NCBI GenBank assembly: GCA_964568885.1
Contig: CAZMSF010000001.1
Location: 5,217-69,216, forward strand
Source of the DNA: an uncultured Gammaproteobacteria bacterium
GTDB lineage: Bacteria > Patescibacteriota > Microgenomatia > Levybacterales > GWA1-39-11
Direction: 5' to 3'
Length of the DNA stretch: 64,000 bases
The notes beneath the pieces are model-generated. The model had not been told where the DNA came from, ran no database searches, and was given only the letters and a program-made list of their open reading frames with translations. The translations under genes were made by a program, and so were the position numbers. Of this stretch, positions 4,115 through 63,940 are shown one piece after another (position 1 is the stretch's first letter; each line of letters starts with the position of its first letter).

Positions 4115-4613
4115 GAAGAAAAATCGGCAGGTTTTTCTGTTTGTTGTTTTGTTTTTAATTCTTGCCCAAAACCAAGCCACAGCTGCAGAAACAACCTCGG
4201 TTAACATTTCAAATAATGGAAACGGCGCGAGCTCAAGCGTTGAAGTGCACAATAATATAAACTCCTATACTTCGACAAGCACAAATTCTACTTCCAAAAC
4301 TAACATCCGAATAGAGACAAATGGAAAAGTTAAGACATATGAATCGGAAAATGGCGGCAGTGTTCATCTGGAGTCTGACGATGGAACCGCAAAAGTCGAC
4401 ATCAACAATAATAATGTTAAAGGCACATCAACAACAAACGGTGTGACCCCGACAGTGACAACAGACTCAAATTCCGCTACTGTGGAGGCAGGGCGCAAAA
4501 TAGAGATTGCAAAGCAGAAAGCAAAAGAGATGAAAGAAAAGCAAAAAGGATTTTTCGCAAGACTGGAGCAGTATTTTAAGGAGTTGTTCTCAAAATTCCC
4601 TTTCAAATTTTAA
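4115..4613 (+). CDS. Secreted S/T/N-rich low-complexity hypothetical protein; probable GTG start with signal peptide
   Basis: VKKNRQVFLFVVLFLILAQNQATA signal-like N-terminus; ORF track extends upstream to 4002 without an RBS. Confidence 0.4.
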
Positions 4614-6591: not shown

Positions 6592-7728
6592 ATGTGTACT
6601 GAGATGAAAAAAATTCTGCTTGTGATAGTGGCTCTTTCTATCCTTTTTTTCCATTGCACGGCGGACCTTTTTGCACAACAAAATACGCCGCCTGCAACGG
6701 GCCAAAATTCTGTTGAAGCAGTGGTCACGAACGTAATCGAAAACAGTGAAATTATTGAAAATACCGGCAACAAACACCCCTACCAAAAGCTTGAGCTATT
6801 GGGTTTGAGCGGTAAATATAAAGGAAAGAAGGTGGTAATTGAAAACGGTAAATACGACCAAAGTGGAGTCATTACATATAGTACCGGGGACACTATTGTT
6901 GTGGCTGTCGAGAAAAATGACAAGGGGCAGGACATGCTGACTATCACAGATTACGTAAGGCGCACTCCGCTGCTTCTGCTTTTCTCCATTTTTGCGATTT
7001 TGGCAATTGTAATAGGAGGAAGACGAGGGGCAAGCTCTTTAATTGGTATGGGAGTCACATTCGGTATATTATTTCTTTTCGTTCTTCCGCAGGTATCAAA
7101 AGGGGTAAGTCCCATTTTGGTTGTCGTTGCCGCATCATCCCTTATAATTCCTATAACTTTTTTCCTCTCACATGGCATAAACAAAAAAACGGCATGCGCA
7201 ATAATCGGTACTCTTATTGCGCTTTTTATCACCGGGCTGCTTTCGGCATATTTCGTGAACGCAGCTCACTTGAGCGGTTTTGCGTCAGAGGAAGCATCGT
7301 ACTTGAATATTATCAAAAAGGGCTCAATTGATATAAAAGGGTTACTCTTGGGCGGCATAATTATCGGTCTTCTCGGTGTTCTTCAAGATATTACCGTTTC
7401 TCAGGCTGCTATTGTTTATCAATTAAAAAGCGCGAACCGTTCGATAAAGCTATATGAATTATTCAAAAGAGCAATGGATGTAGGCCGCGACCATATCGCA
7501 TCTATGGTGAACACATTGATTTTAGTCTATGCCGGAGCTTCCCTTCCCCTACTTCTCCTATTCATAAATAATCCCCTCCCATTCTCGTCGGTCGTCAATT
7601 TTGAAATAATTGCCGAAGAGGTGGTCCGAACCCTTGTTTCAAGCATCGGGCTCATTCTTGCGGTGCCCATAACAACCGCTCTTACCGCTCTTTTTGTTGA
7701 GGTAACCTATAAATCTAAAGAAAAGTGA
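6592..7728 (+). CDS. YibE/F-family polytopic membrane protein
   Basis: Signal/TM, roughly 110-aa extracytoplasmic segment, then 7-8 TM helices with Gly-rich GRRGASSLIGMG. Confidence 0.5.
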   Translation: MCTEMKKILLVIVALSILFFHCTADLFAQQNTPPATGQNSVEAVVTNVIENSEIIENTGNKHPYQKLELLGLSGKYKGKKVVIENGKYDQSGVITYSTGDTIVVAVEKNDKGQDMLTITDYVRRTPLLLLFSIFAILAIVIGGRRGASSLIGMGVTFGILFLFVLPQVSKGVSPILVVVAASSLIIPITFFLSHGINKKTACAIIGTLIALFITGLLSAYFVNAAHLSGFASEEASYLNIIKKGSIDIKGLLLGGIIIGLLGVLQDITVSQAAIVYQLKSANRSIKLYELFKRAMDVGRDHIASMVNTLILVYAGASLPLLLLFINNPLPFSSVVNFEIIAEEVVRTLVSSIGLILAVPITTALTALFVEVTYKSKEK

Positions 7729-24352: not shown

Positions 24353-25483
24353 TCAAGCCGCCGCAGGTCTTAAAAGAGGGGTAAAATCGTATATCGTTTT
24401 GTTCGGAGCGAAAGGATTTCCTGCAACAATTGCGCTTTTGCTGTCAATTCCCAGCATATCACGGAACCTCCATTCCATATAGATTGCTTGATTTGTCATA
24501 TCTTGTTGAGCGTCAAACGCCTTCTTCTGAAAAAATAATTCCGATTGCTGACTGCTATTTATCCCAAATCTCGAGAATAAAGTACGAAAATCTGAAGGCG
24601 TCGTGGGCACCAGACGAAGTCCTGAGGCACGGTCTGCTATTATATCCATTGGTGAACTATTGTCCTCAAGACTTAGTCGCTGCACCTGAAGATTGAGGTG
24701 CCAATCTGCGATTTCTCTGGCTACTTCTTGGCGGATTGTAGCTATGTGGTCTTTATTGGCCATCAGTTTGAATATGTCCTTTACATATTTAGCGTTTTGT
24801 AAACTTCTTTCAACCCCTTCGATGTCCATGCCATACTCATCAAGCAGGTTGAATATTTTTTTGGGGCGTGCTTCCGAAACAAGAGCTCTTAAATATTCAC
24901 CGTATGCCTGAACGAGTGGAGAATGGTATAGTGCAACAATTAAAGACGATGTGTCTGTGCCGTTTGCGATATTCCGCTCTACTGTCTCAAGCGCACTTCT
25001 TCCCCTATCAACAGTGTCCTTTCCTCCAACCGCCGGAACCTCAAATATGTCTGAAGACATAATCCCTTCATAAATTCTTTCATTGAACTCATCATCCTCA
25101 AGCTTTCCCGTCTGACCCAGGCGCTGACGCTTTCTTCTTTCCATTTCAAGCAAAAAATCATATTGGCCGGTTTTCTTATCAAACGGTATCCCCAAGCGTG
25201 CGGCGTTTTCCGAAGCGGCCGAAAGCAATTGAAAAAACAAAGCGCTTTTTCCTGTTGCCGGCTCTCCCATGATGATTATCCGTCGCCCATTTAAAAATTG
25301 TTGCACGAGATAACGTCCGACTTCTCGCCCTTCGTCTCGAATTTCCATAATTCCATTAAGAACATTGTGCCTTTCGGGGCTCAGTTCAATCTCGGCAAGA
25401 GGAACAACAACAGAAGTCCCATCTCGTACCAGTTGCGCATCAAAATCCCTGTTCATTTCAAAATGTGTTTCATTTTCATTCAT
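24353..25483 (-). CDS. Uncharacterised P-loop NTPase, translationally coupled to the upstream histidine kinase
   Basis: Walker A IIIMGEPATGKS near residue 70 (RecA/KaiC-like G-x-P-x-x-GKS pattern); start is 2 nt after the HK stop. Confidence 0.5.
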   Translation of the reverse strand: MNENETHFEMNRDFDAQLVRDGTSVVVPLAEIELSPERHNVLNGIMEIRDEGREVGRYLVQQFLNGRRIIIMGEPATGKSALFFQLLSAASENAARLGIPFDKKTGQYDFLLEMERRKRQRLGQTGKLEDDEFNERIYEGIMSSDIFEVPAVGGKDTVDRGRSALETVERNIANGTDTSSLIVALYHSPLVQAYGEYLRALVSEARPKKIFNLLDEYGMDIEGVERSLQNAKYVKDIFKLMANKDHIATIRQEVAREIADWHLNLQVQRLSLEDNSSPMDIIADRASGLRLVPTTPSDFRTLFSRFGINSSQQSELFFQKKAFDAQQDMTNQAIYMEWRFRDMLGIDSKSAIVAGNPFAPNKTIYDFTPLLRPAAA

Positions 25484-25485
25484 TG

Positions 25486-26643
25486 TTACTTGGGAAGACT
25501 TACAGTAATAGTCGTTCCCACATGGAGCTTGGAGGTAAGAGATACTTTACCCTTATGTTTGTCGATGATATTTTTTACCAGAAAGAGACCAAGACCCATG
25601 CCTTCCTTATAATTTCCTTTTGCCTTAAAAAATTCGACGAATACCTTGTCCTGCTCTCTTTTCCGTATTCCTTTCCCATAATCGGTAATCGATATCGAAA
25701 CATACTTTTCATCCTCCCCGACCGTTAAGACTATTGGAGTCACCGAGGAGGAGAATTTTGCCGAATTATTCAGCAGGTTCGTAAATACCTGCTGCAACTT
25801 TTCCTCATCACCGCGGGCAAGGACAATTTTATGATGAACGGGATTTTCAAGCAGTACTTTATAGCCGGGATAATTAAATTTGAAATTTATGACCGCCTTT
25901 TTCAAAACGTTAAGAATGGCGACCTCTTTCCATGCATACCTCAGCTGCCCCGTTTTTACTTGCTCTATCGCCAAGAGCTCATTTACGATATTTTTAAGTC
26001 TTTTTATCTCGGAACGCAGTATTTCAACCGATTTTGGTGGCGGGAATTGCTTGTTGTTCAGTTTTTTTTCGATAAGCCCTGCATAGGCAGATATGGTCGT
26101 CAACGGAGTCCTTAATTCGTGTGAAGCAAGAGATATGAACAAATCCCTCGCCTCAATAGCCCCGATGGACTCTTCATAAAGCTGAGAGTTCCTAATACCA
26201 AGGCTTAAGAGGGCACCAAACAGACGGAGAGCACCTAACATGTCGTTACCAAACTGTTTTGCTTCATGTGCTTGAAGGGACAATACTCCAATGGTTTGTT
26301 TGTTAAAACTTAAGGGAATAAGAATAAGACATTTTATGCCTTTGTTATATAACTTGAGGTGTGCTTTTTTAAGCTCCTCCCCTTGCACTATTTTCAGCTT
26401 CTCTTCCTCGACGGCGCGTCTTGTATTCCCGCTTTTTCTAGGTTGGACTTGAGAACCGGGAGGCACATCCGAATACGCTCTTACAAATTCACCCTGGGGG
26501 TCAAGAAGGAAAATAGAGCCGTTATTTGCTCCGGCGACACGTATCGCCTCCTGGACCGCTATTTTATACCGCTCCTCAAGCGTTAACGGCTGCAGATAAG
26601 AGAGTGAGGAAAGATATACATTTTCAAGTAATTCATTTGTCAT
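25486..26643 (-). CDS. Cytoplasmic sensor histidine kinase with N-terminal GAF-like domain
   Basis: No TM; H-box SHELRTPLTTI, N box NLLNNSAKFS, G boxes DYGKGI/GMGLGL. Confidence 0.75.
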   Translation of the reverse strand: MTNELLENVYLSSLSYLQPLTLEERYKIAVQEAIRVAGANNGSIFLLDPQGEFVRAYSDVPPGSQVQPRKSGNTRRAVEEEKLKIVQGEELKKAHLKLYNKGIKCLILIPLSFNKQTIGVLSLQAHEAKQFGNDMLGALRLFGALLSLGIRNSQLYEESIGAIEARDLFISLASHELRTPLTTISAYAGLIEKKLNNKQFPPPKSVEILRSEIKRLKNIVNELLAIEQVKTGQLRYAWKEVAILNVLKKAVINFKFNYPGYKVLLENPVHHKIVLARGDEEKLQQVFTNLLNNSAKFSSSVTPIVLTVGEDEKYVSISITDYGKGIRKREQDKVFVEFFKAKGNYKEGMGLGLFLVKNIIDKHKGKVSLTSKLHVGTTITVSLPK

Positions 26644-26646
26644 AAT

Positions 26647-27312
26647 TTACTCTCGTATTGTATACCCAAATCCCCGTACACTTTTTATCAGCGGCTGATG
26701 TGAGCCGTTATCAATTTTTTTTCTCAAGTAGCCGATATAAACGTCAACGACGCGGCTCTCGATGTCAGGAGAATACAACCATATGTGATCAAGAATTGTT
26801 TCCCGGGAAAGAACTACCCCCTGGTTTATCATTAAATATTCGAGTAGTTTGAATTCTGTTGAGGTAAGCGGGATAAGCCTGTTATTTCTTTTTACTTCGT
26901 ACGTTGAGGAGTTCAATTCAAGGTCGGCTATTGTTATCACCGGAGACCCTTTTTGCTTCAAGCGTGAGCGTATTCTTGCGAGAAGTTCTTCGGTTTCAAA
27001 TGGCTTCGAGATGTAATCATCGGCTCCCAAGTCGAGACCGTGGACTATATCTCCGGTAGTATTTTTTGCTGTCAGAATTATTATCGGAAGTGTCGGGTGT
27101 TCCTTTTTGACTTCGGCGCACACGGTTTCACCCGCAATACTGTCAATTCCCAAATCAAGAACGATAAGGTCAGGTTTTGCATCACGCACCATTTTCAGCG
27201 CAACTGCTCCGTCGCCGGTTCCCTTCACGGAATATCCTGCTTCTTTTAATGATTCCTCGAGGTACTCTCGTATGTTTTTGTCGTCTTCAACAACTAAAAT
27301 TTTGTATACCAT
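26647..27312 (-). CDS. OmpR-family response regulator
   Basis: REC domain (ILVVEDD...D...LT...K) plus winged helix (RGFGYTI). Confidence 0.85.
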   Translation of the reverse strand: MVYKILVVEDDKNIREYLEESLKEAGYSVKGTGDGAVALKMVRDAKPDLIVLDLGIDSIAGETVCAEVKKEHPTLPIIILTAKNTTGDIVHGLDLGADDYISKPFETEELLARIRSRLKQKGSPVITIADLELNSSTYEVKRNNRLIPLTSTEFKLLEYLMINQGVVLSRETILDHIWLYSPDIESRVVDVYIGYLRKKIDNGSHQPLIKSVRGFGYTIRE

Positions 27313-27693
27313 GAGTAATAAGTAGATAAATACTAAGCAATTGAGGCAGACGATTATATGAAAAAATCGTAAAGATATGGTAAGAACGTTTTTTCACCAT
27401 AACTTATGTGTATATCTTACCACCGGAATGCAAATAGATGTTGTATTGTGAGGTTATGAATTACGTTCTACGGGAGAGGAAAGGACCATCCAGAAGCTTT
27501 TTACCAATTTCTTCAGAGGCCTTTCGATTAGTTCAACTACATGATAAATAGTAGAGTTGCTTTTAGGAAGTGCGTAATAATTTTTTTGTGTTACCGTTAC
27601 TATCATACTTTCATTATGCCTCTCATTATTAAGATATTTTTTAACTTACAGTGAGAAAGTTGTAAGATTTTTAGTCACCGGTGACTTTATCAT

Positions 27694-28296
27694 TTAACTA
27701 GCGTGATGCACGTGACGTGTTTCATGGCCGTGTGCGCGCTTCATCTCGTCTACATTCGCGTCGTCGTCCATCGTATTTGCTACAAAAGTTTTGACGTCCG
27801 TAGCTCTATAGCTGTCAAGTATCTCCTCGACCTCACTGCTTTGACCTATCCGGGCAGGAACGATAAGAAGAATTGCGCCTGCTTTGACTCTTTCTTCATA
27901 CGTCTTTGCTTCATCTGAGGACAGTCCGAATCCGGCTAACGCTCCAATCAGTCCCCCTGCCACCGCGCCGGTTGCTGCTCCTGCTGCTCCACCTGCTGCA
28001 GCTCCCGATAATCCAAGTGCTGTGGCTATAGGTCCACCGATAAGAAAAGGTCCGAAACCCGGGAAAAGAAGTGCGCTTGCAAGACCTGCAACTCCACCAA
28101 TCACTATGCCTGCGACCGCCCCCGATGCCGTATTTCCGGCAATAGTACCCCCCGTCTCATCTGCCATTTGCTTTGCTTTCTTATGGTCCTGCATGACAAT
28201 TGATATATCTTTTGGTTGGTACCCATGAGATTCAAGGTCGGACATAGCCTCTTCGGCATTTTCTTGTGAAGTAAATACTCCCAATACTGTTTTCAT
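27694..28296 (-). CDS. General stress protein 17M/YflT-like domain protein with glycine-zipper membrane segment
   Basis: N-terminal VLGVFTSQENAEEAMSDLESHGY (YflT-like) and long GxxxG Gly/Ala-rich stretch. Confidence 0.5.
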   Translation of the reverse strand: MKTVLGVFTSQENAEEAMSDLESHGYQPKDISIVMQDHKKAKQMADETGGTIAGNTASGAVAGIVIGGVAGLASALLFPGFGPFLIGGPIATALGLSGAAAGGAAGAATGAVAGGLIGALAGFGLSSDEAKTYEERVKAGAILLIVPARIGQSSEVEEILDSYRATDVKTFVANTMDDDANVDEMKRAHGHETRHVHHAS

Positions 28297-28450
28297 TCTC
28301 TTTCACCTCCTTTTGGCATATTCAAATGGTAACTGCCCAACAATACATTCTTGAAGAGAAAAAGGTAAGGTTTTCTAAAGAGAATTTTACATTTCTCTAG
28401 ACAGACTCAGACTTTATCTTCTTATACTATTGCTAAAGGAGGTGAACGGT

Positions 28451-28624
28451 ATGCGAAGAAACGCATTGGGGCAAAAAATTAAAGGAAAGCTGCAAAAAGT
28501 TAAAGGAGAATTTGAAATGAGGACAGGAAATTCTGCACGCGGTATCCTTGACAAAACAAAAGGAACAGTTAATGAAGGGCTGGCCGATTTCAAGACGGCA
28601 ATCATAAATACGTCAAATGAGTAA
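28451..28624 (+). CDS. csbD: CsbD-family stress response protein
   Basis: KGKLQKVKGEFEM...GILDKTKGTVNEGLADFK CsbD repeats; SD AAAGGAGGTGA before ATG at 28451. Confidence 0.7.
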   Translation: MRRNALGQKIKGKLQKVKGEFEMRTGNSARGILDKTKGTVNEGLADFKTAIINTSNE

Positions 28625-28660: not shown

Positions 28661-29116
28661 ATGAAAGTGGTACTCTTAAATTTGCTAAAGAACATTGGCG
28701 GCAGCAAAAAGACTCCACCAATTGTTGTGCCGAACCCTCAAACAATACCCGCAAAAAAAATCCTGGTTGTTGAAGACGAAGAGGCTTTAAGACAATTGTA
28801 TATTGAAGTACTGTCACAAGAAGGTTTTGAGGTAAAAGGAGCCGAAAACGGCCAGGTTGCATTGTCATTAATACCCCAATTTCAGCCAAATCTTATTTTA
28901 CTTGATCTTATGATGCCTGTAATGGACGGCAAACAATTGCTTCGAAATATGAATGACCAGGAACAGATGAAACTTATACCCGTAATCGTTCTTACCAATG
29001 CCGGAGACGTCGACTCTATGCGCGAGGTAAAGTTTTATGGTAATGCAAAAACATTCTTAATAAAAGCCAACGTTACCCCTCTGGATATCGTGAACAGCGT
29101 CAAAACTCTTGCATAG
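28661..29116 (+). CDS. Stand-alone response-regulator receiver (REC) domain protein
   Basis: KKILVVEDEE...LLDLMMP...K receiver motifs, no output domain. Confidence 0.7.
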   Translation: MKVVLLNLLKNIGGSKKTPPIVVPNPQTIPAKKILVVEDEEALRQLYIEVLSQEGFEVKGAENGQVALSLIPQFQPNLILLDLMMPVMDGKQLLRNMNDQEQMKLIPVIVLTNAGDVDSMREVKFYGNAKTFLIKANVTPLDIVNSVKTLA

Positions 29117-29394: not shown

Positions 29395-29649
29395 CTATAC
29401 CCTACCGGTATTAAAGATCATTCTTCCGAGCCAAATCACGATAACCGCACCCACAATTGAGACAAGAATACTGTAGACATTAAAACCGGTTACGCCACTT
29501 TGACCGAAAAGGTTCATCACAAACCCACCAATAACCGCACCTACTATGCCAAGAAGAATATCTCCTATTATCCCTTGGTTCGACTTCATTATCATCGAAG
29601 CGACCCATCCTGAAAGTGCTCCTAAGACTATCCATAAAAGTATACCCAT
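29395..29649 (-). CDS. GlsB/YeaQ/YmgE-family transglycosylase-associated membrane protein
   Basis: MGILLWIVLGALSGWVAS...GIVGAVIGG signature. Confidence 0.7.
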   Translation of the reverse strand: MGILLWIVLGALSGWVASMIMKSNQGIIGDILLGIVGAVIGGFVMNLFGQSGVTGFNVYSILVSIVGAVIVIWLGRMIFNTGRV

Positions 29650-29752
29650 ACATTTCACCTCCTTTCTTTTGCTACAGTACCAACTTTAGTAGCAATACAA
29701 GAGGCGCCAATGAAAGTTATGCAAGGGTTTGTAAAGAAAGTGAAGATGTGTG

Positions 29753-30313
29753 TTAGCTTACGGGCTTTGCAACGACCACAAACCGCTTAGAGTCAAGAAA
29801 CCCGGTACATGTATAAATGGTAAGTCTTGTGTCATTCGTAGAGTCAATAATATACCGCTGTTGAGGGTCGACCGTTGCCGTATACATTATTTCGAATTCT
29901 TTTTTTATTCCGTTATTCCACGAAACGGTAATATGCTGTCCCGGCTTTGTTTTGGGAAGAGCACCCAGAAGGCTTGACCAATTGTGCCCATACATGACGC
30001 TATTTCCCTTATCGCCAGGAAGTGGAGAACTCGCAAGATAACTTACTCCTTTGCCGGTTGTTTCCCATTGGTTGTTTCTTATGAGTGCCGGATAAATAGC
30101 GACATCAACATGAATTGAGGGGATGATAAGTCTTACAGGTGCTTCACCGCTTACAGGTACTACGACCTCCGTTTTGCCTTCAAATGTGAGCGGATGTGGA
30201 GAGTATCGAAGATACAGAAGATACGCAAAAAATGCAAGAAAGGTTATGCCCAGGAGTATAAGTAATTTTGAGAAAAGCTGTGCCATGGAAATATGGGGAG
30301 ATTTCCACTCCAC
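29753..30313 (-). CDS. Sortase (class E-like) transpeptidase
   Basis: N-terminal TM, catalytic His (VMYGHN), TLxTC (TIYTCTG), conserved Arg. Confidence 0.75.
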   Translation of the reverse strand: MEWKSPHISMAQLFSKLLILLGITFLAFFAYLLYLRYSPHPLTFEGKTEVVVPVSGEAPVRLIIPSIHVDVAIYPALIRNNQWETTGKGVSYLASSPLPGDKGNSVMYGHNWSSLLGALPKTKPGQHITVSWNNGIKKEFEIMYTATVDPQQRYIIDSTNDTRLTIYTCTGFLDSKRFVVVAKPVS

Positions 30314-30321
30314 AGAAAGTG

Positions 30322-30942
30322 TTAGTTAGTGTTTCTTCGAAGCCAGATGCCAAGAATTGTCATGAATATTCCTGCCCCAAAGACAGAAAGAACGAATGTG
30401 ATGTTGCCCGTTGAGGCAAGAGAACCGGCATTTCCTGTAGCGGCCTGAACGGTTGAAGCACCATCAGAACGCCCGTCAGAGCGTCCGTCCGACTTTCCGT
30501 CCGATTTACCGTCCCCGCCTGAATTCTGTGTGGTAGAACTCCCTCCGCCGCACGAATACGAAATGTTTTTTGCAAGATAGCTACCTTCCGAAAGTCCCCA
30601 AGCAGAGCCTGAGGGAACAAATATCCATCCCTGATTTTCATATATCTTAATTTGATCCTGTGACATTTCGCCAACGCTCATCCAGTTGGTTTGCATGCCC
30701 GTACCGTCCGTTGCGCACAAACATTGCATTACATTCCCATTTCCTAAAGAATATACGGTGTCGTGACCGTCTTTTGAGGTACCGCCGACAATTCCATGAG
30801 TTCCATCAGGATAATCAACTACTACATTTCCGCTGGGTGCAAGACATGAAGTGAATGAAGAATCAACGGCAACAGCAGCTACCGGTTTTGCAGTCACCAA
30901 AAGAGCCGTCAAAAGAATAAGAATAACGAATAAATGCTTCAT
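30322..30942 (-). CDS. Sortase-substrate surface protein with LASTG sorting signal and SDG(K/R) repeats
   Basis: Signal peptide; C-terminal LASTG + hydrophobic segment + RRNTN tail; (SDGK/SDGR)x4 repeat. Confidence 0.6.
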   Translation of the reverse strand: MKHLFVILILLTALLVTAKPVAAVAVDSSFTSCLAPSGNVVVDYPDGTHGIVGGTSKDGHDTVYSLGNGNVMQCLCATDGTGMQTNWMSVGEMSQDQIKIYENQGWIFVPSGSAWGLSEGSYLAKNISYSCGGGSSTTQNSGGDGKSDGKSDGRSDGRSDGASTVQAATGNAGSLASTGNITFVLSVFGAGIFMTILGIWLRRNTN

Positions 30943-50962: not shown

Positions 50963-51058
50963 TTTGTGTTTGAGGCGTGTTTGCTTCGCACCATTTTTTC
51001 GCTTCGCTTCAAAATCGAGCGGTCTGCCGTGAAACTGGCAGCGAGGACCGCTTGTTTG

Positions 51059-51139
51059 TGCCTGAGGCGGGACTCGAACCCGCATGACTTGCGCCACACG
51101 CTCTTAAGGCGTGCGTGTATACCATTCCACCACTCAGGC
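51059..51139 (-). tRNA. tRNA-Leu: tRNA-Leu (anticodon TAA)
   Basis: Acceptor GCCTGAG/CTCAGGC, anticodon loop CTTAAGA, long variable arm, T-arm GCGGGTTCGAGTCCCGC. Confidence 0.8.
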
Positions 51140-54075: not shown

Positions 54076-54146
54076 GGGCCCGTAGTTCACCGGTAGAATG
54101 CATCCATGGCATGGATGAGAAAGGAGTTCGATTCTCCTCGGGTCCA
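54076..54146 (+). tRNA. tRNA-Ala: tRNA-Ala (anticodon GGC)
   Basis: Acceptor GGGCCCG/CGGGTCC with G3:U70, anticodon stem CATCC/GGATG with loop ATGGCAT, T-arm AGGAGTTCGATTCTCCT. Confidence 0.8.
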
Positions 54147-54148
54147 CA

Positions 54149-57732: not shown

Positions 57733-57807
57733 TCGGGGTGTAGCTCAGTTGGATTAGAGCGCGCGCTTTGGGAGCGTGAGGTCGGAGGTTCAAGTCCTCT
57801 CACCCCG
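57733..57807 (+). tRNA. tRNA-Pro: tRNA-Pro (anticodon TGG)
   Basis: Acceptor CGGGGTG/CACCCCG, D-arm GCTCAGTTGGATTAGAGC, anticodon loop TTTGGGA, T-arm GGAGGTTCAAGTCCTCT. Confidence 0.85.
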
Positions 57808-57884
57808 ACAAAATTCAGAATCTCCGACAGGTCGGATTGTGCAAGCACAGTTTCACTGCCAAGTCCTCTCACCCCGACAAAATT
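57791..57884 (+). repeat. 24-nt exact direct repeat of the tRNA-Pro 3' end (AAGTCCTCTCACCCCGACAAAATT) separated by a 46-nt two-hairpin spacer
   Basis: Copies at 57791-57814 and 57861-57884; spacer has CCGACAGGTCGG and TGTGCAAGCACA hairpins. Confidence 0.7.
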
Positions 57885-58904: not shown

Positions 58905-58975
58905 GCGGGATTAGTTTACCGGTAAAACATCAGATTTCCAATCTGAGGTAACGAGTTCGATTCTCGTATCCCGCT
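58905..58975 (+). tRNA. tRNA-Gly: tRNA-Gly (anticodon TCC)
   Basis: Acceptor GCGGGAT/ATCCCGC, anticodon stem TCAGA/TCTGA with loop TTTCCAA, T-arm ACGAGTTCGATTCTCGT; TATAAT 10 nt upstream. Confidence 0.85.
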
Positions 58976-58979
58976 CATA

Positions 58980-63721: not shown

Positions 63722-63796
63722 GGGTGGAAGACGGGTGCCGCCCCCGCGACCTCAGGTTCCACAAACCTGCGCTCTACTGTTGAGCTACATCCACCG
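63722..63796 (-). tRNA. tRNA-His?: tRNA-His-like (anticodon GTG, G-1:C73) with atypical D-loop (no GG) and T-loop (GGCGGCA)
   Basis: Extra 5' G pairing with C73, acceptor GTGGATG/CTTCCAC (one mismatch), anticodon stem CAGGT/ACCTG with loop TTGTGGA, encoded CCA-like end. Confidence 0.45.
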
Positions 63797-63867
63797 AAAA
63801 ATGAAATTTTTTGGTGGCATGCAAGACAAATTTTAATTTGGCTTACATCCACCTAATCAATTTCTTG

Positions 63868-63940
63868 CGCCCTCGAAGGGACTCGAACCCCCAACCTAAT
63901 CGTTAGAACCGATGTGCTCTATCCATTGAGCTACGAGGGC
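63868..63940 (-). tRNA. tRNA-Arg: tRNA-Arg (anticodon TCT)
   Basis: Acceptor GCCCTCG/CGAGGGC, D-arm GCTCAATGGATAGAGC, anticodon loop GTTCTAA, T-arm GGGGGTTCGAGTCCCTT. Confidence 0.8.

Follow-up and report, generated by a model that had tools for sequence, protein, structure and literature searches.

A rare P-loop protein family with a predicted kinase fold, linked to a soluble GAF histidine kinase in Microgenomates-group CPR bacteria

The three-gene locus

Three consecutive genes lie on the minus strand of the window, by which we mean the whole 64,000-nt stretch of DNA that was analysed. The first two encode a response regulator (RR) and a histidine kinase (HK), both assigned from open reading frames and Pfam; the third, taken from the list of open reading frames, encodes a P-loop protein that we call X. 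A consensus scan adds a possible terminator downstream.

26647-27312, minus strand: RR, OmpR/PhoB-family response regulator, 221 aa
25486-26643, minus strand: HK, soluble GAF sensor histidine kinase, 385 aa
24353-25483, minus strand: X, P-loop protein, 376 aa
24100..24116, minus strand: terminator-like hairpin followed by a T-rich tail, ~240 nt past the X stop codon

The genes are tightly packed, with spacings that agree with the original prediction: 3 nt at the RR-HK junction (TAA-ATT-ATG) and 2 nt at the HK-X junction (TAA-CA-ATG). The predicted local GC content of 45-50%, at the high end for the window, did not hold up. The three genes measure 43.0% and the whole window 41.4%, with values up to 45.6% in other 2-kb bins, so the region is not compositionally unusual. 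The hairpin probably marks the end of the transcription unit, judging from its sequence and position, although the scan returned 6 such sites where 3.9 were expected and is hence weak evidence alone.

By domains and motifs, the first two genes are an OmpR/PhoB-type regulator and a HisKA-type kinase. The regulator joins a receiver domain (Pfam Response_reg, 5.6e-30), with D53, T81 and K103 present in the translation, to a winged-helix Trans_reg_C output domain (8.6e-26). The kinase has a GAF domain at about residues 20-150 (2.9e-9), then HisKA/DHp (6.6e-13), with the H-box HELRTP from residue 175, and then HATPase_c (1.5e-22), with NLLNN at 289, DYGKG at 321 and GMGLG at 348. It contains no transmembrane-like segment (maximum Kyte-Doolittle value over 19-residue windows, 1.41), which together with the GAF match bears out the claim of a soluble kinase with a GAF sensor. 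NCBIfam equivalog scores place neither protein in a named orthologous system (PhoBR, WalRK, MtrAB and others): the regulator falls below the cut-off of every named NCBIfam regulator (best PhoB, 201 bits against 296), as does the kinase for PnpS (147 against 400) and WalK (138 against 725). The GAF domain has no informative relative among solved structures and hence gives no hint of its ligand.

Two further features lie upstream of the RR gene, both read from the sequence.

27369..27384, minus strand: CTTAC-CATATC-TTTAC, a direct repeat (period 11 bp) that overlaps the -35 position of the operon promoter
27353..27358, minus strand: TATAAT, a -10-like hexamer exactly 10 nt 3' of the repeat

Sites of the OmpR/PhoB family are tandem repeats, and it is by this geometry that the repeat is predicted to be a binding box for an OmpR-type regulator. 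The same arrangement, [C/A/T]TTAC-N6-[C/A/T]TTAC, recurs in related loci: it precedes the RR start by 60-105 nt in L001, L003, L006 (which has three repeats), L008, L133 and L136, and it lies in the intergenic region upstream of HK in L138; the chance expectation is 0.2-0.7 per whole locus. Furthermore, L001, L003 and L008 have a -10-like hexamer at the same 10-nt distance from the repeat, preceded by TTTCA. A promoter scan of the window did not call the hexamer at 27353..27358 because there is no -35 hexamer there, and a missing -35 would be expected of an activator-dependent promoter. The position of the CTTAC-N6-CTTAC repeat upstream of the RR gene suggests autoregulation. A wider regulon cannot be claimed, since a search of the 64-kb window with this box gave 3 further matches where chance predicts 2.3, and no neighbouring stress gene has one upstream of it.

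A new family of P-loop proteins

X matches no Pfam or NCBIfam family, giving only sub-threshold P-loop matches; Pfam gives the same result for all 51 members of its family, and phmmer and profile searches of the PDB find P-loop stretches only. The family is rare. An exhaustive HMM search found 51 clusters in 1.84 billion representatives, and a word-indexed search with the 51-sequence profile added no members. Metagenomes were also searched with the degenerate DNA pattern for E-x-P-[AG]-V-G-x5-D-R-G-x-x-A, which recovers 9 of the 12 X loci fetched by then; at least 120 loci matched, and among the matches listed none encodes X according to hmmsearch. The two consistent source labels among the relatives are Microgenomates-group CPR bacteria. 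X founds this rare family, being the first of its members to be described, and the family has the P-loop kinase fold. As a known anti-phage defence NTPase or mobile-element gene it was considered and rejected: PADLOC gives a P-loop-level match only (mad8, E 0.0057, 14 bits), tblastn finds X in none of 50,697 phage records and none of 72,556 plasmid records, and no relatives were found in IMG/VR.

The fold was examined in an AF2 model built on the 51-sequence alignment (pLDDT 91.5, pTM 0.89), which was used in place of a model with only 7 close homologues (pLDDT 51). In this model the N-terminal domain (~residues 55-240) is a P-loop kinase fold, not a RecA/AAA+ (ASCE) fold; the C-terminal domain is mostly helical, without a structural match. 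The original prediction of a KaiC-like or kinase-like ATPase thus survives in its kinase-like half and fails in its KaiC/RecA-type half. Of the comparisons that it proposed, Foldseek of the model against PDB and BFVD gave nothing at E<=1e-3. Alignment of the family profile to single E. coli sequences with hhalign gave 83% for AroK over 48 columns, 22% for GntK and 43% for RecA; P-loop-proximal columns alone align, and these values do not discriminate between fold classes. The conserved positions are as follows.

25244..25267, minus strand: Walker A, G73-E-P-A-T-G-K79-S80 (residues 73-80, GEPATGKS)
25157..25162, minus strand: Y108-D109, directly after strand beta-2 (alignment and model)
24992..25042, minus strand: Walker-B-like strand end E148-x-P-x-V-G153, then [K/R]158-D159-R160-G161-x-[S/T]-A164 (alignment)
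24887..24889, minus strand: R199, in the helix after strand beta-4

First, the P-loop. G73 and K79 are present in 51/51 members, P75 in 49 and G78 in 47. The family consensus is GEPGxGKT, and the GEPATGKS of the window protein also fits Walker A, GxxxxGK[ST]. The suggestion that G-x-P-x-x-GKS points to RecA, KaiC or RadA is undercut by the published pattern of PSTK, GxP(G/A)xGK(S/T), which has the same form (PMC2275090). Second, strand 105-107 of the model precedes position 108, which is Y in 48/51 members, and position 109, which is D or E in all 51. The AroK alignment (probability 83%, 48 columns) puts Y108-D109 on the Y-D of FYDSD. D109 is a candidate Mg2+-binding or acceptor-activating acid and, by analogy, may be equivalent to D41 of PSTK and D35 of T4 Pnk, where the equivalent Asp is essential (PMC2275090). 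Third, E148 is invariant, and P150 (42/51), V152 (44/51) and G153 (49/51) follow it closely, as do a basic residue at 158 (43/51), D159 (42/51), R160 (45/51) and G161 (44/51). Fourth, R199 is R in 51/51. Its helix, residues 189-204, comes after strand 180-185 in the model, a topology that would put it at the LID position of P-loop kinases. Judged on the secondary-structure string, [DE]109, E148 and R199 sit at the places expected of a kinase. N134, Q192, D159, R160 and E253 are each kept in at least 82% of the family. X therefore has more than the Walker A motif that was first credited to it: the search for a Walker B and an arginine in the alignments yielded E148 at the Walker-B-like strand end and R199, both in 51/51, along with the invariant acidic 109 and the strongly conserved K/R158-D-R-G.

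Two other P-loop classes were rejected. A RecA/KaiC/RadA ATPase fails on the RecA-type ASCE core, with its Walker B hhhhD and catalytic Glu, and on significant sequence or structure similarity beyond the P-loop. A small Ras-like/TRAFAC GTPase (CvnD, MglA) fails on G4 [NT]KxD and G3 DxxG: [NT]KxD occurs anywhere in only 4/51 members and never occupies a conserved column, E-x-P-x-V-G closes the Walker B strand, and the small_GTP model of NCBIfam reaches 14 bits where 42.5 is the cut-off.

Linkage to the histidine kinase and possible roles of X

X lies directly 3' of the same GAF kinase in 11 of 12 readable contexts, which represent 9 of 10 lineages (the window, L001/2, L003, L006, L007, L008/9, L010, L012, L133/4, L136/7 and L138). 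The spacing is -14 to +2 nt in 11/11 loci with both genes, so the tight packing is no local accident. This holds while the flanking genes vary and the identity of X falls to ~23% (23-33% in the distant loci), and it answers the question of neighbourhood conservation raised by the original prediction in the affirmative. The exception is P0050 (L135), a family member without an adjacent kinase. No fusion of HK and X occurs among the 51 representatives. Two loci are informative about which partner matters. In L136 the RR gene is displaced by 1.26 kb, and in L138 there is none within 4.8 kb; HK and X remain adjacent in both, which ties X to the kinase, not the regulator. The partners diverge at different rates. 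Across loci, HK is 38-96% identical to the kinases 5' of X and RR 60-99% identical to its orthologues. For L008, identity to the window is 28% for X against 62% for HK and 76% for RR; X evolves much faster, which is unusual for the fixed partner of a conserved sensor.

The conservation of the cassette across distantly related CPR/Microgenomates bacteria means that X is very probably a working part of a signalling system, as far as gene order can tell. Hence the core of the original prediction, a soluble-GAF two-component operon coupled to a P-loop protein and wired to signalling, stands. The outcome that the original prediction had named as speaking against it is a common housekeeping kinase, in this case one so diverged in CPR genomes that it is no longer recognised, which lies near a two-component system by accident. 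CPR proteins are often highly divergent, and the fold class is common to shikimate, gluconate, adenylate and cytidylate kinases. Those kinases have 150-220 aa, however, against 376 aa with an extra 140-aa domain in X; 51 clusters in so large a database are far too few; there is no NCBIfam equivalog match; and X stays linked to the GAF kinase in lineages with differing flanks. Contradicted by both rarity and linkage, this explanation was rejected, and we give it almost no weight.

What, then, does X do? One possibility puts X at the output end: it would phosphorylate small molecules in salvage, in detoxification or to modify antibiotics, would be co-expressed in an autoregulated operon and would need no direct contact with HK. 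Chloramphenicol phosphotransferase, TmrB and nucleoside or sugar kinases would be its analogues: the GAF domain would sense a compound or stress, RR would raise transcription and X would process the compound. Co-transcription is equally compatible with a regulated output enzyme. However, the adjacency and start/stop overlap of HK and X are kept where RR has moved (L136) or is not nearby (L138), suggesting that stoichiometric co-production with the kinase matters. In addition, no transporter or pathway gene is consistently linked across the neighbourhoods, and a single context in nearly every lineage would be unusual for a free-standing metabolic enzyme. We regard X as an output enzyme as a real, if somewhat unlikely, possibility.

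Alternatively, X may act on a protein. It could tune the balance between the kinase and phosphatase activities of HK, either as an NTP-dependent switch or as an ATPase that binds its partner, as in KaiC-SasA-RpaA, PII-NtrB-NtrC or the Ras-like GTPase of conservons, or a P-loop protein kinase on HK or RR, as in HprK/P. The coupling of X to HK is tight, conserved and independent of RR; the invariance of the Walker A lysine and E148 argues that nucleotide turnover matters; and the large C-terminal helical domain could serve to bind proteins. Modulation of histidine kinases by accessory proteins, a G-protein system among them, is documented (PMC13343842). Action on a protein nevertheless seems improbable to us.

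Relatives of X give clues to its chemistry. P0023 is X with a C-terminal HAD domain (Pfam HAD_2, 1.5e-21) whose core and cap align with phosphoglycolate phosphatases, and HADs with a cap usually have small-molecule substrates (PMC11164532). At its N-terminus P0050 carries a His_Phos_1-like domain that contains an RHG motif, and in L012 a His_Phos_1 gene is next after X; these two signals are weak, one at 19.4 bits, where the gathering score is 21.7, and the other at 21.8 bits, from an ORF that is truncated. The fusions point to reversible phosphorylation chemistry, and the substrate of X is probably a small molecule. A stronger version would have X and the fused or neighbouring phosphatases make and remove a phosphorylated second messenger that is read by the GAF domain of the coupled kinase; this goes well beyond what we think likely.

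The best reading of X is a new P-loop kinase family that forms the third component of a cytosolic two-component system. Specifically, we tentatively favour a three-gene signalling cassette that regulates its own expression in Microgenomates-group CPR bacteria and in which X is a kinase acting on the input side of HK, a proposal that we consider plausible though short of probable. One promoter would transcribe RR-HK-X, its -35 region replaced by the CTTAC-N6-CTTAC box for RR. Translation of X would be coupled to the HK gene, with both proteins made together, and physical or functional coupling of the two proteins may follow the genetic one. X would be an active NTP-dependent phosphotransferase, most probably on a small molecule, that makes, removes or reports an intracellular ligand or nucleotide state read by the GAF domain. 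HK would then phosphorylate RR on D53, and RR would feed back on the operon. We infer the catalytic activity of X, the direction of information flow and the autoregulation.

Comparison with known systems

The closest enzymatic comparison is with the DxTN kinases (T4/Clostridium polynucleotide kinase, PSTK, Kti12). They share with X the P-loop pattern GxP(G/A)xGK(S/T), an acidic residue after strand beta-2, an N-terminal kinase with a C-terminal specificity domain, and phosphatase fusions, which in relatives of X are HAD and His_Phos_1-like. T4 Pnk is a HAD fusion and PFK-2/FBPase-2 a His_Phos_1 fusion; Leipe et al. (2003) reportedly placed the PFK-2 kinase domain in the DxTN group. We know of no DxTN kinase that is genetically coupled to a histidine kinase. 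Where DxTN kinases have D-x-T-N at the end of strand beta-3, X has E148-x-P150-x-V152-G153; in place of their ATP-binding motif RxxxR (PMC2275090), X has the single invariant R199, positions 195 and 203 being not basic and 194 basic in 24/51; and the C-terminal domains are unrelated. X lacks both of the group's defining motifs and resembles it in the P-loop. The same absences count against a polynucleotide or tRNA kinase of PNK/PSTK/Kti12 type that repairs or modifies RNA when the cell is under stress, while the two-component system does no more than control its expression. In addition, the C-terminal domain matches no tRNA-binding domain, the fused HAD is of the capped small-molecule type, not the capless macromolecule type, and no neighbourhood contains a ligase, Hen1 or other RNA-repair partner. 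We find such a role very unlikely.

Several signalling systems resemble the cassette in part. KaiC-SasA-RpaA, the output of the cyanobacterial clock, also wires a P-loop NTPase to a histidine kinase and an OmpR-type regulator; it is the analogy behind the original prediction. Actinobacterial conservons combine the histidine-kinase-like CvnA, roadblock and DUF742 proteins, and the Ras-like GTPase CvnD. CvnD is small, whereas X is a 376-aa kinase-fold protein without NKxD; moreover, the cassette lacks roadblock and DUF742 genes, its kinase is a soluble GAF protein with a canonical OmpR-type partner, and the host phylum differs. In PII (GlnB)-NtrB-NtrC and PhoU/PstB-PhoR-PhoB, a nucleotide-binding accessory protein, not an extracellular ligand, sets the kinase/phosphatase balance of a histidine kinase that senses in the cytoplasm. 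The likeness to PhoR-PhoB extends to scores, since RR and HK score best against the PhoB and PnpS/PhoR models, below cut-off. However, PII and PhoU do not belong to the P-loop proteins, and PstB is an ABC ATPase; a kinase fold is absent from all of them, and X shows no similarity to any. Finally, the bifunctional PFK-2/FBPase-2 both synthesises and degrades a metabolite whose role is purely regulatory. In P0050 the domain order is reversed relative to this enzyme and the His_Phos_1 signals are weak, and the X of the window has no phosphatase domain. By this analogy, second-messenger turnover by X would amount to a self-contained, CPR-specific messenger-plus-two-component pathway, similar to PFK-2/FBPase-2 but wired to transcription, an outcome we rate as unlikely.

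CPR/Patescibacteria have tiny genomes and few regulators, and to our knowledge almost nothing has been established about the ways in which they sense hosts or conditions inside the cell. Searches of Pfam, NCBIfam, PADLOC, PDB and the literature gave no precedent for a kinase-fold P-loop enzyme as the conserved partner of a histidine kinase. The cassette is a concrete, testable signalling unit: a soluble GAF kinase and its regulator, a DNA box that is predicted, and a third component which genomic criteria mark as obligate. X founds a new P-loop kinase-fold family with defined invariant residues to mutate. If X is only a regulated output, it still represents an enzyme family that lacks annotation and whose gene context hints at the inducer. 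If it makes or consumes the GAF ligand, it would provide both a new enzyme activity and the kind of signal that has long been sought for cytoplasmic GAF histidine kinases.

The conserved kinase-X gene pair

Three minus-strand ORFs lie head to tail in the window:

26647-27312, minus strand: RR, OmpR/PhoB-type response regulator, 221 aa
25486-26643, minus strand: HK, GAF-HisKA-HATPase_c histidine kinase, 385 aa
24353-25483, minus strand: X, P-loop protein with GEPATGKS, 376 aa

The junctions, read directly in the window, are TAA-ATT-ATG between RR and HK (3 nt) and TAA-CA-ATG between HK and X (2 nt), exactly the gaps of the original prediction. Its description of an OmpR-type regulator and a soluble GAF kinase also holds: Pfam assigns Response_reg (5.6e-30) and Trans_reg_C (8.6e-26) to RR, and GAF (2.9e-9), HisKA (6.6e-13) and HATPase_c (1.5e-22) to HK, in which no stretch reaches transmembrane-level hydrophobicity (maximum 19-residue Kyte-Doolittle mean 1.41). 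D53, T81 and K103 are all found in the RR translation, and HK carries the H-box HELRTP from residue 175, NLLNN at 289, DYGKG at 321 and GMGLG at 348. Neither protein reaches a named equivalog cut-off in NCBIfam, the best scores below cut-off being 201 of 296 bits (PhoB) and 147 of 400 bits (PnpS). For X, only P-loop matches are found beyond GEPATGKS in Pfam and NCBIfam, all sub-threshold. The one claim that proved wrong was a local GC of about 45-50%, high for the window; the three genes have 43.0% against 41.4% for the window, where other bins reach 45.6%. The observation as a whole is otherwise confirmed.

How rare is X? A word-indexed search of 5.8 billion proteins returned six relatives at 60-99% identity, and an exhaustive HMMER search of 1.84 billion cluster representatives with their alignment as query yielded a family of 51 proteins at E<=1e-3, 14 of them at E<=1e-30. 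Pfam gives the members nothing beyond P-loop-level AAA_16, nSTAND3 or AAA_22 matches, one NCBI record names its copy merely "ATP-binding protein", and no X-like sequence was found in phage, plasmid and IMG/VR collections. Source labels are present on three members: Candidatus Levyibacteriota (X 77% identical to window X), Candidatus Collierbacteria and "Uncultured Gammaproteobacteria". The last is probably a binning error, because its contig, syntenic with the window, encodes RR and HK 91% and 90% identical to those of the window. This 195-kb contig (CAYPEN010000003.1, loci L001/L005) is probably mislabelled and likely of Levyibacteriota type; over at least 20 kb it shares with the window sortase, Transgly_assoc, REC, YflT, RR-HK-X, DUF2079, P-type ATPase, deacetylase and alanine racemase genes. 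The closest database copy of X, P0001 from an ENA contig (99% identical), has K79N in Walker A (GEPATGNS) together with L87R and E92D. All three changes fall inside 14 residues (79-92), representing either a naturally inactivated allele or a short-range assembly error.

Is X consistently linked to the kinase? Contigs of family members were sampled across the full E-value range, and the gene-neighbourhood conservation that the original prediction looked to is found: of 12 contexts with readable upstream DNA, 11 place X immediately after a GAF-HisKA-HATPase kinase, and so do 9 of 10 lineages when the three close window relatives are merged. One of these kinases (locus L012) has two GAF domains and another (L010) is cut by the contig end. 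Distances from HK stop to X start at 11 loci are +2, +2, +1, -8, -8, -8, -11, -14, -1, -11 and +1 nt. The X start lacks a preceding Shine-Dalgarno-like sequence in the window and in all ten relatives' junctions, so translational coupling of HK and X fits. Flanking genes vary by lineage (DUF2079 and P-type ATPase; YggT and ADP-ribosylglycohydrolase; AdoHcy hydrolase; metallo-beta-lactamase; SecA), and the pairing thus goes beyond synteny by descent alone. In most lineages an OmpR-type RR gene is immediately upstream of HK. At locus L136 it is 1.26 kb away, with three opposite-strand genes between, and at L138 there is no RR within 4.8 kb of HK-X; it is therefore the HK-X pair that forms the constant unit. 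The sole exception is P0050 (locus L135), a family member with a 250-residue N-terminal extension, no kinase upstream and greA adjacent. These comparisons demonstrate that the cassette is conserved and that X is linked more tightly to HK than RR is; the HK-X linkage is solid.

Fold and class of X

Classification of X cannot be made at the sequence level alone. PDB profile matches, like hhalign comparisons with the actual AroK, GntK and RecA sequences of E. coli, are confined to the P-loop region; the alignment with AroK reaches furthest, up to Y-D after beta2. An AlphaFold model was poor with only seven close homologues (pLDDT 51); the 51-sequence alignment gave pLDDT 91.5 and pTM 0.89.

Secondary structure of the X model (residues of window X)
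68-73: beta1, then P-loop and helix 79-97
105-107: beta2
108-143: two helices
146-149: beta3
162-173: helix
180-185: beta4
189-216: helices
219-222: beta5
C-terminal half: mostly helical, two short strands at the end

Structural neighbours are Kti12, PSTK, Clostridium PNK, PFK-2, and gluconate and shikimate kinases, together with chloramphenicol phosphotransferase, APS, uridylate, adenylate and cytidylate kinases, and PPK2. The best 60 structural matches include no RecA, KaiC or AAA+ protein. Of the "KaiC-like or kinase-like ATPase" originally proposed, the kinase-like form is supported and the KaiC-like form is not. The suggested Foldseek check of the model against PDB and BFVD gave no match at E<=1e-3; X, above all its C-terminal domain, is therefore without a solved counterpart. 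The fold class is solid.

Among the 51 members (numbering of window X), G73, K79, E148, R199 and an acidic residue at 109 are present in all. Nearly as constant are P75 and G153 (49 each), Y108 (48), G78 and E253 (47), N134 (46), R160 and Q192 (45), and V152 and G161 (44), followed by a basic residue at 158 (43), P150 and D159 (42), and W261 and N356 (41). At loci with all three genes, X diverges far faster than RR and HK, with the catalytic-looking residues still invariant (RR/HK/X identity to the window copies 91/90/60% at L001, 75/59/33% at L006, 76/62/28% at L008). In the model topology, the acid at 109 comes after beta2 and is the predicted equivalent of D41 of PSTK and D35 of T4 Pnk, both essential (PMC2275090). 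For the Walker B and the arginine to be sought in the alignment, the same topology offers E148, at the end of the candidate Walker-B strand, and R199, in the helix after beta4, the predicted LID position.

Because the GxP(G/A)xGK(S/T) form of the P-loop has been published for PSTK (PMC2275090), it does not single out RecA or KaiC, with which the original prediction had grouped it. X as a RecA-like ATPase is rejected on the structural matches, as a member of the DxTN group because it has neither D-x-T-N nor RxxxR, motifs that its nearest structural neighbours carry, and as a GTPase because it lacks NKxD. Since all three motifs are missing, X is placed as a new family inside the P-loop kinase class, outside the DxTN group. 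That it is a diverged housekeeping kinase is barely credible.

Promoter and neighbouring genes

Upstream of RR lie two elements:

27369-27384, minus strand: direct repeat CTTACCATATCTTTAC, [C/A/T]TTAC-N6-[C/A/T]TTAC, 11-bp period
27353-27358, minus strand: -10-like hexamer TATAAT, 10 nt past the repeat end

The repeat occurs 60-105 nt upstream of the RR gene in the window, L001, L003, L006, L008, L133 and L136; shuffles predict 0.2-0.7 per whole locus. L006 holds three CTTAC-type repeats there, L138 has two more copies on the opposite strand of the HK-upstream intergenic region, and L007 has none. For the window, L001, L003 and L008, exactly 10 nt separate the repeat end from a -10-like hexamer, which puts the repeat at the -35 position. 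A repeat at -35 is the layout of PhoB-type activator-dependent promoters. We infer that the operon is autoregulated by RR through this predicted box. Elsewhere in the window there are 3 other matches against 2.3 expected, with no convincing target. At L136, a second CTTAC-N6-type box (4228-4243, minus strand) is just upstream of an opposite-strand 57-aa gene and a YggT gene, and at L006 a YggT gene (7144-7473) follows X; the system may thus have YggT as a recurrent neighbour or target.

Other window features
27694-28296, minus strand: stress-type gene
28430-28624, plus strand: stress-type gene
28661-29116, plus strand: stress-type gene
29395-29658, minus strand: stress-type gene
29753-30313, minus strand: sortase gene (Pfam 1e-20)
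30322-30942, minus strand: 206-aa secreted protein
1982-2053: tRNA
51058-51139: tRNA
54076-54147: tRNA
57734-57809: tRNA
58905-58976: tRNA
63723-63794, minus strand: tRNA (Rfam call only, 48.8 bits)
63867-63940: tRNA

The stretch just upstream of the cassette repeatedly holds small stress-type genes (window, L001-L003, L006, L008/9, L133/4). Near it are found a YflT-domain protein, upstream (Pfam 7.6e-12; window, L001-3, L133/4), a Transgly_assoc/GlsB-type membrane protein (8.3e-13; window, L001/2, L006, L008/9), a stand-alone receiver protein (window, L001-3, L008/9) and a 64-aa ORF that is CsbD-like by eye, with no Pfam match. The stress-type genes, none with a CTTAC box upstream, may form the regulon or serve as a phosphate sink. 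A perfect 14-nt palindrome, AGTCACCGGTGACT (27673-27686), stands 8 nt past the yflT stop codon; it is kept in L001, and a symmetric double change in L003 (AGCCACCGGTGGCT) leaves it intact. On the yflT strand it is not followed by a T-run; it might act as an RNA hairpin or as a dimeric operator. The sortase gene is directly downstream of the secreted-protein gene, a pair kept in L001; the secreted protein is a likely sortase substrate because of its C-terminal LASTG-hydrophobic-RRN tail and Ser/Asp/Gly-rich repeat (GKSDGKSDGRSDGRSDG). The tRNA genes (seven by Rfam, six by ARAGORN) have no link to the cassette finding.

Proposed role and known systems

What might X do? The 628-aa member P0023 joins X to a C-terminal HAD domain (HAD_2, 1.5e-21), with RR and HK still upstream; its core and cap align with phosphoglycolate phosphatases (2nyv, 5e-9). 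The N-terminal domain of P0050 combines an RHG motif with a weak His_Phos_1 match (E 9e-4; 19.4 bits, gathering score 21.7), and the gene after X in L012 likewise has an RHG motif, with a His_Phos_1 match at threshold level; this His_Phos_1 evidence is weak, a lead. That two unrelated phosphatase families are linked to a kinase-fold protein speaks for a real, reversible phosphorylation by X. Capped HAD phosphatases generally act on small molecules and capless ones on macromolecules (PMC11164532), so the capped type of the fused HAD favours a small substrate. A protein-directed X, as a switch or protein kinase, is improbable, and a polynucleotide or tRNA kinase more improbable still.

The most economical mechanism, put forward tentatively, is that X would be an NTP-dependent phosphotransferase with a small-molecule substrate. 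On the input side of HK, the soluble GAF kinase, X would make, consume or report the intracellular signal, and RR would close a feedback loop on the cassette operon. The main rival, that X is merely a regulated output enzyme, draws on the much faster evolution of X than of its partners (at L008, RR 76%, HK 62%, X 28%) and on the phosphatase-fused P0050, which exists without a kinase; it appears rather unlikely.

The cassette would work in the manner of other three-component arrangements that couple an accessory nucleotide-binding protein to a histidine kinase: KaiC-SasA-RpaA, PII-NtrB-NtrC, PhoU/PstB-PhoR-PhoB and the actinobacterial conservons (PMC13343842). Literature searches for an RR-HK-X type combination found nothing. 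The cassette differs from all four systems in fold, motifs and partner domains, and belongs to none of them. It is a two-component system to which X adds a third, accessory component, and X founds a new protein family.
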